A DNA stretch of 64,000 bases from Escherichia coli O127:H6 str. E2348/69 (GTDB lineage Bacteria > Pseudomonadota > Gammaproteobacteria > Enterobacterales > Enterobacteriaceae): the NCBI RefSeq assembly GCF_000026545.1, contig NC_011601.1. One strand, given 5' to 3'. A program made the translations under genes and the position numbers. Of this stretch, positions 75-8,979 are shown piece after piece. Position 1 is the first letter of the stretch. Each line of letters starts with the position of its first letter. Below the pieces are notes generated by a model. It was not told the origin of the DNA. It saw only the letters and a list, made by a program, of their open reading frames with translations, and did not search any database.

Positions 75-1049
75 ATGAGGAGTAGCAAAGTGCACTCAGA
101 AGAATTAAAAAATACACTTGGATTAGCTATTCAAATCGGGAAGCTAGCATCTGATCAAAGTGTATTAAAATTCTTTGAGCTTATCGATTTTGATGTTATT
201 CGTGATATACGCGACTTAACTGAGATGGTTAATAGCCACGGGTTTCTAAAAGATAAAATATCTGAGACTGATTTTCTAATAGCGAACGCTGAATTGGAGA
301 ACCACCATGTTAATGGTGTGGAGCTAATACCATATGGGTCTGAATTCTATCCTCTTAGTTTAGCTTTTACTCCTAATCCACCATCAATTCTCTACATAAA
401 AGGGGATAAAAGTATACTCAAAGAATTGCCGGGTGTCGCAATTGTAGGATCCCGTGATACCTCCCCTGCAGGGGAAGAAATAACGAGGCGGATCACTAAT
501 CAGATAGTGTCTGCTGGGTATATTGTTGTAAGTGGGTTAGCAATAGGCACTGATGCGAATGCCCACAAGGCAACGTTACAGGCAAAAGGAAAAACCATTG
601 CTGTCTTGGCGCATGGTCTTGAGGAGGCTAAGCCGAAGCAAAACAGTCGACTTGCTCAAGAGATTCTGGATAAAGGTGGTGCATGGATTTCTGAGTATCC
701 TATGGGTCGGCCGGCCCAGAAACAATCATTTGTACAAAGAAATCGGATACAAGTTGGATTATCTGCAGGTTCAATTTTAATCGAGGCTGCGTTAAATAGC
801 GGAACGATAACTCAAGCTGAGTTTGCAAATAAGGCGAAAAGACCAGTGTTTGCGGTTGTACCTCACCTACCTAATAATCCGCTTAATCTTAATTGTGAGG
901 GAACAGTTGATTTAGTTAAGAGCAACATGGCTAGAGCGCTAAAAACAAAACGGGATTATGATGATGTGATTATGATCATAAATGAGTCCCGGGAGTATTT
1001 GTTAGAGCTAAAATGGCCAGGGAAACAGAGTACATTAGACTTGATTTAA
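75..1049 (+). CDS. DprA/Smf-like (SLOG Rossmann-fold) protein, accessory cargo
   Basis: Translation carries the DprA signature (PPSILYIKGD...VAIVGSRDTSPAGEE...VVSGLAIGTDANAHKATL...RNRIQVGLSAG...PVFAV). Region is visibly AT-rich compared with the adjacent phage genes. Start may be the GTG at 90, which has a GAGGAG Shine-Dalgarno upstream. Confidence 0.6.
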   Translation: MRSSKVHSEELKNTLGLAIQIGKLASDQSVLKFFELIDFDVIRDIRDLTEMVNSHGFLKDKISETDFLIANAELENHHVNGVELIPYGSEFYPLSLAFTPNPPSILYIKGDKSILKELPGVAIVGSRDTSPAGEEITRRITNQIVSAGYIVVSGLAIGTDANAHKATLQAKGKTIAVLAHGLEEAKPKQNSRLAQEILDKGGAWISEYPMGRPAQKQSFVQRNRIQVGLSAGSILIEAALNSGTITQAEFANKAKRPVFAVVPHLPNNPLNLNCEGTVDLVKSNMARALKTKRDYDDVIMIINESREYLLELKWPGKQSTLDLI

Positions 1050-3911: not shown

Positions 3912-3929
3912 TGTGTGGTTGTCGGTACA
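3912..3929. promoter_or_regulatory. TGT-N12-ACA dyad, candidate Ogr-dependent late promoter element for the O operon
   Basis: TGTGTGGTTGTCGGTACA lies ~80-95 bp upstream of the O start codon; P2 late promoters carry a TGT-N12-ACA element near -55. The pattern also occurs by chance, so the call rests on placement. Confidence 0.4.
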
Positions 3930-5919: not shown

Positions 5920-6570
5920 ATGAGCCTGAGTCCCGCACGGCAGCATCGCCTGCGCGTTCAGGCTGAACAGGCCGCTCGTGAGGGCGGCAGTGTTCGCCAC
6001 GCGTCGGGCTATGACCTGATGCTGCTGCAACTGGCGGAAGACCGCCGCCGTCTCAAGGGCGTTCAGTCCACGGTGAAAAAAGCGGAAATAAAGGTGGAGC
6101 TGCTGCCGAAATATGCCGCCTGGGCGGAGGGCGTCCTGGCTGCCGGAGGCGCTCAACAGGATGACGTGCTGATGTACGTGATGCTGTGGCGCATTGATGC
6201 CGGAGATTATGCCGGGGCGCTGGAGATCGGGCGTCATGCCCTGCGTCATGGCTGGGTGATGCCGCTGGGTAACCGCAACGTGCAGACCGTGCTGGCAGAG
6301 GAAATGGCAGATGCAGCGCAGAGCGCAATGCTTGCCGCCACCGGCTTTGATGCCGATCTGTTGCTGCAGACGCTGGAGCTGACAGACGGTCTGGATATGC
6401 CGGACCAGTCACGGACGCGTCTGCATAAAGCGATTGGCGCTGTCCTGAGTGAAAGCAATCCGGCTTCCGCCCTTAATCATCTCAACCATGCGTTACAGCT
6501 CGATCCCCGCTGTGGCGTGAAAAAAGACAAACAGCAGCTGGAGCGCAGACTGCGCAATGACAGCCGCTGA
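5920..6570 (+). CDS. M: terminase small subunit / endonuclease (P2 gpM-like)
   Basis: 216 aa, position after N; P2 gpM family. Confidence 0.85.
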   Translation: MSLSPARQHRLRVQAEQAAREGGSVRHASGYDLMLLQLAEDRRRLKGVQSTVKKAEIKVELLPKYAAWAEGVLAAGGAQQDDVLMYVMLWRIDAGDYAGALEIGRHALRHGWVMPLGNRNVQTVLAEEMADAAQSAMLAATGFDADLLLQTLELTDGLDMPDQSRTRLHKAIGAVLSESNPASALNHLNHALQLDPRCGVKKDKQQLERRLRNDSR

Positions 6571-6665
6571 CAGAACGTGCCCCCGCGCACGGGCGGCACG
6601 GGGTGGCGAAAGGCACTGCCACATCAAAACCCCGTCCACCGCCCTTTATTTCAGGAGAAAGCAGC

Positions 6666-7130
6666 ATGAAGTTTGTTGCGCCAGAACAGGCACCGGAACA
6701 GGCGGAAATCATCAGAAATACGCCGTTCTGGCCTGATGTGGACCTGTCGGAGTTTCGCAGTGTCATGCGCACTGACGGCACGGTGACGCAGCCGCGTTTA
6801 AAGCAGGTTGCGCTGTCGGCAATTTCGGAGGTCAACGCAGAGCTGTATGAGTTTCGCAGACGCCAGCAGATGCTGGGGTATGCCTCGCTGGCAGAAGTCC
6901 TGGCGGAACAACTGGACGGCAAAAGCGAGCGCATTCAGCACTATTTCAACGCGGTTTACTGCTGGGCACGCGCCATGCTCAACGAACGTTACCAGGACTA
7001 TGACGCCACGGCATCCGGTGCGAAGCGAGGCGAGGAACTGGCGGAAGCCAGCGGTGATTTATGGCGTGACGCCCGCTGGGCCATCAGCCGGGTGCAGGAT
7101 GCGCCGCACTGCACAGTGGAGCTTATCTGA
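6666..7130 (+). CDS. L: head completion/stabilisation protein (P2 gpL-like)
   Basis: ATG at 6666 preceded by AGGAGAAAG; the six-frame ORF begins earlier at 6603, but the homologous part starts MKFVAPEQ. Confidence 0.85.
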   Translation: MKFVAPEQAPEQAEIIRNTPFWPDVDLSEFRSVMRTDGTVTQPRLKQVALSAISEVNAELYEFRRRQQMLGYASLAEVLAEQLDGKSERIQHYFNAVYCWARAMLNERYQDYDATASGAKRGEELAEASGDLWRDARWAISRVQDAPHCTVELI

Positions 7131-7333
7131 TGAAAGTGCGTGCGCATCAGTATGACACGGTGGACGCACTTTGCTGGCGTCATTACGGGCGCACGCAGGG
7201 TGTCACGGAGCAGGTACTGAAGGCAAATCCGGGGCTTGCCGAATACGGCCCCTTTTTACCTCACGGGCTGCAGGTGGAGCTGCCGGACATTCCGACAACC
7301 ACCACCGTGCAGACCGTCCAGCTATGGGACTGA
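7130..7333 (+). CDS. X: tail protein X (P2 gpX-like)
   Basis: 67 aa, ATGA start/stop overlap with L; typical P2 gpX size and position. Confidence 0.8.
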   Translation: MKVRAHQYDTVDALCWRHYGRTQGVTEQVLKANPGLAEYGPFLPHGLQVELPDIPTTTTVQTVQLWD

Positions 7334-7336
7334 ATT

Positions 7337-7552
7337 ATGACGCTTGAGCGAATCAGCGCCTTTATCACGTATTGCATCGCCGTCGTGCTGGCCTGGCTGG
7401 GCGATTTGTCCATCAAGGATGCCTCAACGCTGGGCGGCCTGATGATCGGTGTGCTGATGCTGGCTATCAACTGGTACTACAAACACAAAGCCTACCAGCT
7501 TCTGCGCGACGGGCAGATCTCGCGGGAGGACTATGAATCCATCAATCGTTAA
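7337..7552 (+). CDS. small membrane protein, probable holin (pinholin-like)
   Basis: 71 aa with two hydrophobic segments, located immediately upstream of an endolysin that has an N-terminal signal-anchor-release segment. Confidence 0.6.
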   Translation: MTLERISAFITYCIAVVLAWLGDLSIKDASTLGGLMIGVLMLAINWYYKHKAYQLLRDGQISREDYESINR

Positions 7553-8045
7553 ACGCTGCCTTGTCGGGGCCGTGCTGGCTATTGCTGCCACGCTGCCGGG
7601 TTTTCAGCAGCTTCACACCTCCGTGGAGGGGCTGAAACTGATTGCCGATTACGAAGGCTGTCGTCTGCAGCCGTATCAGTGCAGCGCGGGTGTCTGGACC
7701 GACGGCATTGGTAATACGTCGGGCGTCATTCCGGGCAAAACCATTACGGAACGACAGGCAGCGGAAGGGCTGATCTCTAACGTGCTGCGTGTGGAGCGGG
7801 CACTGGAAAGGTGTGTGAAGCAACAGCCGCCGCAGAAGGTGTATGACGCTACGGTGTCGTTTGCCTTCAACGTGGGGACGGGCAATGCCTGCAGTTCCAC
7901 GCTGGTGAAATTGCTCAATCAGCGGCGCTGGGCGGATGCGTGCCGACAGTTGCCGCGCTGGGTTTATGTAAAAGGTGTTTTTAATCAGGGGCTGGATAAC
8001 CGCCGTGCGCGGGAGATGGCCTGGTGCTTACAGGGAGCAAACTGA
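7533..8045 (+). CDS. K: SAR endolysin (T4-lysozyme-like muramidase, GH24)
   Basis: Hydrophobic N-terminus (VGAVLAIAATLPG) followed by lysozyme motifs (EG..L.AY.D..GVWTDGIGNT). Confidence 0.8.
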   Translation: MNPSIVKRCLVGAVLAIAATLPGFQQLHTSVEGLKLIADYEGCRLQPYQCSAGVWTDGIGNTSGVIPGKTITERQAAEGLISNVLRVERALERCVKQQPPQKVYDATVSFAFNVGTGNACSSTLVKLLNQRRWADACRQLPRWVYVKGVFNQGLDNRRAREMAWCLQGAN

Positions 8046-8046
8046 A

Positions 8047-8424
8047 ATGAAAAAGAAATTAATCAGCGGGCTGTTTCTGATGTTATGGATGGCGCTGTTA
8101 ATCGCAGCAATGGTGTATCCGCATGGGATTTTTCCGGTACTGGCAGCGTCCGGCGTTTGGGTAGCCTGTTTGCTGACATGGGCGGTAATTCCGGTAGCAC
8201 TGGCTGCGTTAATTAAGAATGGCCCGCTCTGGCAGGAGTTGAGGGCATCTTTGCTGAAGAAAATTACCCGAAAAGAAAACGTATTTATCAGCTGGGTGAT
8301 GCGATTGCTGATTGTCGTCAGTCTCGCCTGGACGGGGTGGGCTATTACCCTGGTCTTTTATCTGCTGACCGTTATTGCCTTCTGGATCACCCGTAATCAG
8401 ATGGCGCAACAGGTAGCAGCATGA
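8047..8424 (+). CDS. lysA: LysA-like lysis-timing membrane protein
   Basis: ~125 aa multi-pass membrane protein from ATG 8047, positioned between endolysin and lysB as in P2. Confidence 0.6.
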   Translation: MKKKLISGLFLMLWMALLIAAMVYPHGIFPVLAASGVWVACLLTWAVIPVALAALIKNGPLWQELRASLLKKITRKENVFISWVMRLLIVVSLAWTGWAITLVFYLLTVIAFWITRNQMAQQVAA

Positions 8425-8849
8425 ACCGGTTGCTGCTGGTTGTGCTGACGTTATTACTGGCGGCGCTGGGCTGGCAGACGTGGCGGCTGGCTGATGCCAG
8501 CCGGACCATCACCACGCAGGCAGACGAGCTGCAGAGCAAAAGCCAGGCACTGGCAAAGAGCAACAGCCAGCTTATCAGCCTGTCCATTCTGACTGAAACC
8601 AATAACCGGGAGCAGGCGCGGCTCTATGCCGAAGCAGAACAGACCAGCGCGCTGCTGAGACAACGACAACACCGGATCGAGGAACTGAAACGTGAGAACG
8701 AGGATTTACGCCGCTGGGCTGATACTCCTTTGCCTGCTGACATTATCCGGCTGCGGGAACGTCCGGCACTTACCGGAGGTGCAGCTTACCGTCAGTGGTT
8801 GTCCGCGAGTGACGCCGTGTCGGCTGGAGCAGGCAGCGCCGCGCACTAA
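8421..8849 (+). CDS. lysB: LysB (i-spanin, Rz-like)
   Basis: 142 aa, N-terminal transmembrane segment then coiled-coil-rich periplasmic region; P2 lysB position. Confidence 0.75.
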   Translation: MNRLLLVVLTLLLAALGWQTWRLADASRTITTQADELQSKSQALAKSNSQLISLSILTETNNREQARLYAEAEQTSALLRQRQHRIEELKRENEDLRRWADTPLPADIIRLRERPALTGGAAYRQWLSASDAVSAGAGSAAH

Positions 8850-8979
8850 CGGTGATCTGAACGCAATGCTGGATGAAACGGAGGCCGCCTGGGCGGTCTG
8901 TGCAGACAAAGTGGACATGATTATTGCGTGTCAGGAGCGAAACAGTGAACAAACCACAATCCCTGCGCCACGCCCTTAA
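8692..8979 (+). CDS. lysC: LysC (o-spanin, Rz1-like lipoprotein) overlapping lysB in another frame
   Basis: 95 aa, lipobox LTLSGC, starts inside lysB out of frame, as in P2. Confidence 0.7.
   Translation: MRTRIYAAGLILLCLLTLSGCGNVRHLPEVQLTVSGCPRVTPCRLEQAAPRTNGDLNAMLDETEAAWAVCADKVDMIIACQERNSEQTTIPAPRP

Follow-up and report, generated by a model that had tools for sequence, protein, structure and literature searches.

Several lysis systems related to the one discussed here have been described. The HP1 proteins Hol and Lys behaved in experiments as a pinholin and an endolysin of the signal-arrest-release (SAR) type, respectively, and the authors of that work reported an unusual topology for Hol (PMC7312051). 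Pinholins that accompany SAR endolysins also include P1 LydD and a protein of N4, whereas phage Mu pairs its SAR endolysin with a releasin and has no holin, and P1 also uses the holin LydA. The SAR feature itself is described as a weakly hydrophobic, Gly/Ala-rich segment that follows one or two basic residues and lacks a lipobox (PMC9239132). Regarding the spanins, the "overlapped" gene architecture was defined for P2, as opposed to the "embedded" one of lambda (PMC6139136, PMC3091744), while P2 LysA is a non-essential protein that affects lysis timing (P2 record) and was described as an antiholin with four transmembrane domains (TMDs) (PMC3091744). A cassette with P2 architecture, a P1-Lyz-like SAR endolysin and overlapped spanins was described in Klebsiella phage KP12 (PMC9902359). 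The subject of this analysis is a closely similar cassette, found at positions 7337-8979 of a 64,000-nucleotide stretch of the Escherichia coli O127:H6 str. E2348/69 chromosome (NC_011601.1), hereafter the window. We read it as an intact lysis cassette in the late operon of a P2-like prophage, and the comparisons given below make it quite likely that lysis would follow the route of pinholin, SAR endolysin and spanin.

A P2-like lysis cassette and its distribution

The element that carries the cassette is a P2-like prophage (Peduoviridae, Wadgaonvirus-like) of enteropathogenic E. coli (EPEC) E2348/69, inserted between rcdA and ybjL. In a nucleotide search, the 2.2 kb from 7130 to 9376 are 100% identical to E. 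coli O127:H6 EPEC E2348/69 and 97-98% identical to about 1000 other E. coli chromosomes; of 5426 complete E. coli genomes, 1057 (about a fifth) gave a match, which in 961 of them spans at least 80% of the query. P2-like records with 97% nucleotide identity include Escherichia phages 500465-1 and vB_EcoM-813R9, Klebsiella phage KP12 and many Klebsiella prophage-derived records. The cassette is therefore already known, since it is annotated, very common and represented in the literature by a 97%-identical copy. A literature search on the P2-like prophage of E2348/69 itself found no paper, and a search combining Fels-2 with pinholin found only a spanin survey.

In RefSeq, the genes are ordered as tail protein X, HP1 family phage holin, lysozyme, DNZ54_00345 family protein, LysB, LysC, R and a truncated S, with R labelled as a tail protein and S as a truncated virion morphogenesis gene. 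A sequence-only reading of the window had named a holin, a lysozyme, lysB and lysC as a lysis cassette. All four open reading frames (ORFs) were found where it had placed them, the scores of their family profiles exceed chance by a wide margin and pass the curated cut-offs, and the RefSeq labels agree (HP1 family holin, lysozyme, LysB, LysC). A fifth gene inside the same interval, which encodes a LysA-like protein, had gone unmentioned. The features discussed are collected in Table 1.

Table 1. Position and basis of assignment of the features discussed (numbering of the window; aa, amino acids)
Feature	Position	Strand	Basis
Holin, 71 aa, class II, HP1-family / holin superfamily II, probable pinholin	7337..7552	+	PF16080, phrog_20, hydropathy
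Endolysin, 170 aa, GH24/T4-type muramidase, P1 Lyz SAR class	7533..8045	+	PF00959, 1XJT, alignment, AlphaFold
Putative SAR segment, endolysin codons 9-24 (CLVGAVLAIAATLPGF)	7557..7604	+	Hydropathy, composition, Cys9 alignment
LysA-like integral membrane protein, 125 aa, four TMDs	8047..8424	+	DNZ54_00345, phrog_162, hydropathy, position
lysB, i-spanin (Rz-like), 142 aa	8421..8849	+	TIGR03495, phrog_89, P2 LysB alignment
lysC, o-spanin (Rz1-like) lipoprotein precursor, 95 aa	8692..8979 (GTG)	+	NF038368, PF23793, P2 LysC alignment
TGT-N12-ACA dyad, presumed Ogr/Delta-type activator site	3912..3929	+	Pattern search; between divergent P (terminase) and O (scaffold)
AT-rich ORF, 384 aa, S-V intergenic position	13299-14453	+	

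The endolysin

The lysozyme gene begins 20 nucleotides (nt) before the end of the holin gene, in a different frame, and its product matches PF00959 in Pfam with an E value of 4e-40. Its closest solved relative is P1 Lyz (1XJT, E 2e-26), followed by R21 and DLP12 RrrD. In a MAFFT alignment of 23 sequences, residues E41, C43, C50 and T56 share columns with E42, C44, C51 and T57 of P1 Lyz, Cys9 is aligned to Cys13 of P1 Lyz and to Cys11 of HP1 Lys, and HP1 Lys also aligns at C43 and C50. The catalytic triad pattern E-8aa-(D/C)-5aa-T is present as E41, C50 (in the D position) and T56, and C43 and C50 make up a putative caging disulfide pair. The N-terminus reads MNPSIVKR-CLVGAVLAIAATLPGF-QQLHTS, and hydropathy shows a single hydrophobic segment at residues 9-24, after K7 and R8 and with Cys9 at its cytoplasmic edge. 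Gly, Ala, Ser and Thr account for 44% of this segment. The figure is 21-32% for the TMDs of LysA and LysB in the window and in P2, and 55-63% for the SAR segments of P1 Lyz, HP1 Lys and the R21-like RrrD. The segment of the window endolysin is shorter than those of P1, R21 and HP1. On a crude Hessa scale, the known SAR segments (P1, R21, HP1) have insertion energies of -0.3 to +0.15 kcal/mol; these values fail to separate SAR segments from stable TMDs and are used here as description only.

Homologues with at least 80% identity and a native N-terminus all keep [KRN]-R-C, and positions 2-5 and 10-13 vary. Among distant homologues, taken as representatives from a library of 1.84 billion proteins, 27 have both a hydrophobic N-terminus and the EGC..C pair, and 24 of these also carry an N-terminal Cys (16 of 19 when near-duplicates of the query are set aside); of the five that have a hydrophobic N-terminus without this pair, one carries it. 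Since the EGC..C pair is also found in 21 soluble relatives, it is the extra N-terminal Cys that is informative. The AlphaFold model of the endolysin has a predicted local distance difference test (pLDDT) score of 92.9 and places residues 11-26 in short helices packed onto the enzyme body, with pLDDT above 90 for residues 11-30. The best PDB match of the model in Foldseek is full-length P1 Lyz (1XJT; template modelling score 0.85 over 173 columns), and the same structural match was reported for the 97%-identical endolysin of KP12 (PMC9902359). According to the model, the N-terminal segment would refold within the soluble enzyme.

The same N-terminus may also be taken for an ordinary cleavable Sec signal, in which case the lysozyme would be a soluble periplasmic enzyme under some other control. 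Some points weigh against a SAR assignment: the hydrophobic stretch is short, with a core of 13-16 residues that has a Pro and contains A16-I17-A18, which fits the -3/-1 rule, and a cleavable Sec signal remains compatible with the sequence; moreover, SignalP-type tools call such segments signal peptides, and at least one published SAR assignment, that of T4 RI, was later overturned (PMC8385771). Nevertheless, SignalP scores the N-terminus of HP1 Lys as a signal peptide although HP1 Lys acts as a SAR endolysin (PMC7312051), so that a predicted cleavable signal, which the sequence-only reading had proposed as a refutation, would not discriminate between the two cases, and P1 Lyz contains the same A-I-A. 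A discarded signal peptide is disfavoured because the Cys-bearing segment is both conserved and structurally integrated: Cys9 is kept between variable flanks and aligned to the regulatory Cys13 of P1 Lyz, and AlphaFold packs residues 11-26 with confidence into the enzyme body, the arrangement of full-length P1 Lyz. In addition, an unregulated secreted muramidase would be expected to kill the cell before assembly ends. We consider a cleavable signal very improbable, and the alignments and the model support a P1-Lyz-type, disulfide-caged SAR endolysin. The SAR endolysin proposed in the sequence-only reading is in this way borne out by P1 Lyz as closest relative, by the aligned cysteine and catalytic triads, by the frequency of the N-terminal Cys and by the AlphaFold match.

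Two other meanings of these residues were rejected. Cys9 is not a lipoprotein cysteine, as it is preceded by K-R and by no hydrophobic lipobox, and K7 and R8 were not taken as a sign of Mu-type releasin dependence, as no DUF2730 match was found in the eight proteins around the cassette. Likewise, some longer database proteins do not represent new domain architectures: the 235-aa "endolysin" P0001 is a frameshifted holin-endolysin fusion, the 296-aa "endolysins" are frameshift fusions of endolysin and LysA, and the 288-aa P0051 joins the endolysin to an unrelated C-terminal part (PF05954). The 296-aa endolysin-LysA-like frameshift alleles occur in some E. coli genomes, one sequence being present on 30 contigs that include complete chromosomes. 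In further database entries, the 235-aa P0001 among them, the endolysin is joined to the holin instead.

The holin

The holin scores 36.7 bits against the HP1 holin family PF16080 in Pfam (cut-off 28.8), and phrog_20 matches the window holin (93.7 bits), EssD (116.6 bits) and HP1 Hol (39.5 bits). Hydropathy gives two hydrophobic segments, TMD1 at residues 6-22 and TMD2 at residues 29-47, with a short acidic loop between them and a basic tail, opening KHK, after TMD2; the topology is predicted to be an N-in/C-in class II layout. The sequence-only reading had noticed a two-transmembrane protein of this size directly before a lysozyme with a hydrophobic N-terminus, and hydropathy agrees on both proteins; the two-TMD class II layout is consistent with pinholins. 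In TMD2, residues S30, G34 and G38 are invariant or near-invariant across 83 family members, and when the family profile is aligned to EssD (hhalign, probability 22%) they pair with G40, S44 and G48, while N45, Y47 and K49 pair with N55, Y57 and K59. The S30xxxG34xxxG38 pattern resembles the GxxxSxxxG small-xxx-small (glycine-zipper) motif of S21-type holins. In S21, the small-xxx-small face of TMD2 lines the pinhole.

Its pairing with SAR endolysins is maintained among relatives. A holin homologue is present in 83 phage records, and in nearly all the annotated rows listed a lysozyme or endolysin gene overlaps that of the holin. In all six of the diverged P2-like phages inspected, the holin is followed by a SAR-type lysozyme of KRC...EGC..C pattern; these lysozymes open with M(N/S)(P)SIVKRC... 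and carry EGC..C. Direct BLAST and hhalign comparisons of the holin with EssD and HP1 Hol were rejected as proof of homology, being too weak alone, and the link between the window holin and the pinholins is made through the Pfam and PHROG profiles and through intermediate sequences. A PDB search with the holin returned only chance photosystem I matches (E at least 0.8).

Several observations tell against a pinholin, and they bear on a different possibility, namely that the protein is a canonical class II holin with large holes, which would still free a SAR endolysin through collapse of the membrane potential and could also let folded proteins pass. The score against the P21 S model (PF04971) is 23.2 bits, under its cut-off of 26, and the hhalign probabilities are weak with both EssD (22%) and HP1 Hol (8%). 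TMD1 is conserved and strongly hydrophobic, in contrast to the TMD1 of S21, which is rich in Gly, Ser, Thr and Ala: these four make up 35% of TMD1 in the window holin, against 55% in TMD1 of the S21-type EssD, and the 17-residue insertion sum of the former on the crude scale (-0.56 kcal/mol) makes it more hydrophobic than TMD2 (+1.94 kcal/mol), although the TMD1 value is similar to those of known SAR segments on the same scale. An S21-style exit of TMD1 from the membrane is thus not supported by its composition, as the segment is hydrophobic and has few small residues. The sequence also shows no dual start in the holin, which has a single ATG with the in-frame stop of X 3 nt upstream. Finally, SAR endolysins can pair with non-pinholins, as with P1 LydA and the Mu releasin; these two are exceptions to the rule, invoked in the sequence-only reading, that SAR endolysins are typically partnered with pinholins.

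On the other hand, S21-like and HP1 holins share one PHROG with the window holin and the zipper of TMD2 is conserved, the relatives inspected show this holin family beside SAR-type lysozymes only, and HP1 Hol, the prototype of the family, released no beta-galactosidase (PMC7312051). HP1 Hol also has no dual start (PMC7312051), so this motif does not strictly define a pinholin. Relatives with 28-37% identity in P2-like phages of Yersinia, Erwinia and Klebsiella open with MGL[K/S/T]MEKI(S/T), similar to the dual start of S21 (MKSMDKIS), while in the subfamily of the window holin Leu3 replaces the second Met and a single start is left; judged from these sequences, this subfamily lost, or never possessed, an antiholin isoform. 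Dual-start relatives were seen at L010:2495-2716, L011:2495-2716 and L012:2495-2716. We regard large holes as unlikely and consider, as the sequence-only reading did, that the window holin is probably a pinholin; family, PHROG and the conserved pairing with SAR endolysins speak for this, the composition of TMD1 and the single start against it. The pinholin label is here extended by inference to a very widespread gene; no test of hole size for enterobacterial HP1-family holins was found in the literature searched.

The spanin genes

LysB scores 173.7 bits against TIGR03495 (cut-off 92.75), with a TMD at residues 4-20 by hydropathy followed by a periplasmic helical domain, and it shares with P2 LysB 30% identity and the conserved motif NENEDxRRW. 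LysC scores 122.9 bits against NF038368 P2_Rz1 (cut-off 27) and 52.5 bits against PF23793 (cut-off 27), and is 41% identical to P2 LysC from residue 1. Its signal, MRTRIYAAGLILLCLLTLSG, ends before C21 in the lipobox LTLSG-C21, with G22 at +2, a residue from which sorting to the outer membrane is predicted. The mature protein of 75 aa is predicted to start at the lipidated Cys21 and contains four further Cys and seven Pro, a content typical for Rz1-like o-spanins.

lysC begins at codon 91 of lysB in the +1 frame, overlaps it by 158 nt and continues for 130 nt past its end, so the two genes have the layout of an overlapped two-component spanin, as in P2. The sequence-only reading had recognized this P2 arrangement, including a lysC that runs in another frame and beyond lysB, but its term "nested" does not hold, since the genes overlap. 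RefSeq starts lysC at a CTG at 8734, giving 81 aa and leaving only "LLTLSG" before the lipidated Cys. The GTG at 8692 is better supported, because it has a GAGGA Shine-Dalgarno sequence 8 nt upstream, opens a complete signal (n-region, h-region and lipobox) and makes the product collinear with P2 LysC from residue 1 (MRTRIYAAG versus MRTKIFAAG). Phage records start lysC still later, with products of 38-56 aa.

The LysA-like protein

The gene between the endolysin and lysB has the position of P2 lysA. Hydropathy of its product gives TMDs at about residues 5-23, 36-56, 79-97 and 96-114 and a basic central loop. It scores 119.7 bits against NCBIfam DNZ54_00345, and phrog_162 is common to it (E 9e-43, 146.9 bits) and to P2 LysA (227 bits), while direct BLAST between the two is weak (E 0.003, 24% identity). 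By analogy with P2, it is presumed to be a non-essential, antiholin-like factor of lysis timing.

The gene is present in the lineage of the window and in Erwinia phage EtG, and absent from cassettes that are syntenic in other respects, namely those of Salmonella RE-2010, of Klebsiella ST13-OXA48phi12.1 and RCIP0057, and of the Yersinia phages (L010-L015). Its absence from these sister cassettes makes any role of the protein dispensable and accessory, which counts against giving it a fixed place in the lysis route. It could be supposed that it replaces, as timing regulator, the missing dual-start antiholin of the pinholin and SAR endolysin pair, but this we consider quite improbable. In P2, the phrog_162 member lies next to an endolysin that is soluble and a class I holin of no relation to this one; given this neighbourhood and its dispensability in sister cassettes, the protein might act independently of the type of holin, with membrane energisation or release of the SAR domain as possible targets instead of the binding of one holin.

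Integrity of the cassette and the rearranged tail module

From X-hol through R, the reading frames of all six genes are open, with 93-100% protein identity to 500465-1 and vB_EcoM-813R9, and no nonsense or frameshift change was seen in these six consecutive small genes. Codon differences from 500465-1 are mostly synonymous (synonymous to nonsynonymous 15:3 in lys, 9:5 in lysA and 8:2 in R), with lysB as an exception (3:9). The genes are tightly packed, with overlaps of 4-158 nt and gaps of 1-3 nt, and no internal promoter or terminator signal above shuffled controls was found in 6500-10000.

Transcription of the cassette is presumed, by analogy with P2, to start at a late promoter marked by the TGT-N12-ACA dyad upstream of O and to cover O-N-M-L-X-hol-lys-lysA-lysB-lysC-R-S'. 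We take the placement of this dyad to fit the Ogr-dependent late-promoter architecture of P2. Further dyads of this form stand upstream of V (13262-13279, within the inverted segment described below) and of FI (15186-15203); against an enrichment, the pattern occurs 11 times in the whole window, versus 15 expected.

Downstream of the cassette, the prophage is rearranged. Compared with 500465-1, the window is collinear up to 9736, 79 nt short of the end of S, then carries, in inverted orientation, the block that runs from the start of V to the H constant part (9738-13216), followed by unrelated AT-rich DNA with a 384-aa ORF (13217-14497), and collinearity returns at 14498, directly before the DNA invertase gene. 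At each junction lies a Cin/Gin-type crossover site of 26 bp with TA at its centre, at 9731-9756 (reverse strand) and 14490-14515, the two being inverted relative to each other; each is a hybrid of half-sites seen in 500465-1, and one lies inside S. When the segment 9745-14502 is flipped back in silico, the frame and C-terminus of S (...RYAKRRLLG...) are restored. Within this segment of 4.76 kb lie the H constant part, I, J, W, V and the AT-rich cargo ORF. The prophage lacks the fibre-assembly genes and the variable segment of the tail fibre. A DNA-invertase-type rearrangement has thus cut S and H short, and the view of the sequence-only reading, an intact cassette beside a damaged tail module, stands. 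The segment might still be invertible. The invertase gene at 14571-15137 looks intact.

These losses raise the possibility that the cassette is a silent relic of a defective prophage, whose genes would never be expressed and whose intactness would reflect a recent inactivation. Besides the truncation of S and H and the inversion of the V-H block, RefSeq annotates no tail-fibre assembly gene, as expected for a relic. However, the prophage retains an integrase, CI, CII, a replication gene, the ogr/Delta late activator at its end and the late-promoter dyad, and none of the six consecutive small genes shows a nonsense or frameshift change. A silent relic is possible, if on the unlikely side, and we keep to the reading of a functional late-operon cassette.

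Two cargo regions of the prophage may be mentioned. For the 384-aa ORF, no Pfam match above threshold and no PADLOC match were found, and it may be an accessory or defence gene of a kind not yet characterised. In relatives, the S-V position holds other cargo, namely orf30 in P2 and a predicted ATPase pair in 813R9. A second cargo region, between a DinI-like gene and the portal gene, contains a gene at 75-1049 (+), DprA in RefSeq, which matches the model of the ShosA antitoxin of the ShosTA defence system (PADLOC, E 3e-70).

Proposed course of lysis

The comparisons suggest the following course, which rests throughout on likeness of these proteins to better-studied ones, a point that itself weighs against too firm a reading. 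The Ogr-dependent late promoter upstream of O would drive transcription of the cassette along with that of the head and tail genes. The class II holin would build up in the inner membrane, trigger at a set time and depolarise it through holes that, by homology and context, are probably small, of S21 type and lined by TMD2. Meanwhile, the endolysin would be exported by Sec, tethered to the membrane by the weakly hydrophobic segment 9-24 and held inactive by the C43-C50 disulfide, as P1 Lyz is. Depolarisation would let the SAR segment leave the bilayer, whereupon Cys9 would isomerise the disulfide, as in P1 Lyz, and the refolded enzyme would degrade the murein. The four-TMD LysA-like protein may modulate timing, as P2 genetics suggests, and LysB in the inner membrane with the lipoprotein LysC in the outer membrane, both members of known spanin families, would form the spanin that removes the outer membrane.

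With S and H cut short, induction would lyse the cells but yield no infectious particles; E2348/69 is predicted to be still able to lyse on prophage induction and unable to make complete tails. The main value of the analysis lies in correct annotation, that is, in the lysC start at GTG 8692 and in counting the LysA-like gene as part of the cassette.

Comparison with known systems

The nearest counterparts are found in the Wadgaonvirus-type phages 500465-1, vB_EcoM-813R9, Cartapus and KP12, which share the order X-hol-lys-lysA-lysB-lysC-R and are 97% identical in nucleotides and 93-100% in proteins. Within the cassette the differences are point substitutions only, whereas the copy of the window adjoins rearranged tail genes. 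The P2 module Y-K-lysA-lysB-lysC occupies the same site between X and R, with the same lysA, lysB and lysC families (phrog_162, TIGR03495, NF038368) and the same lysB/lysC overlap, the three proteins being 24%, 30% and 41% identical to those of the window, respectively. In contrast, P2 Y is a class I holin with three TMDs (PF04550), unlike the two-TMD holin of the window, and P2 K is soluble, has no hydrophobic N-terminus and shows 15% identity to the window lysozyme in a global alignment.

P1 Lyz (PDB 1XJT/1XJU) is 35% identical to the window endolysin and shares with it the motif EGCRxxPYxCxAGVWTDGIGNT. Its hydrophobic segment has about 20 residues, against 16 in the window endolysin, in which the Cys lies at the cytoplasmic edge, and the main P1 holin, LydA, is unlinked to Lyz, while the window endolysin gene adjoins that of its holin. 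In this last respect the window resembles S21/R21 and DLP12 EssD/RrrD, where a 71-aa class II holin with two TMDs also directly precedes a SAR lysozyme. The S21-type and window holins belong to the same PHROG and align in the small-xxx-small pattern of TMD2 and in the juxtamembrane N..Y.K, but the window holin has no dual start and its TMD1 is about 9 residues shorter and much more hydrophobic; moreover, R21 is without the Cys caging system of the window endolysin. HP1 is likewise a P2-like phage with a PF16080 holin, no dual start and overlapping holin and lysozyme genes, and HP1 Lys, like the window endolysin, combines a Cys in the SAR segment with the EGC..C pattern. The two holins are 21% identical, and the HP1 cassette, unlike that of the window, follows the tail tube gene and is without a lysA-like gene.

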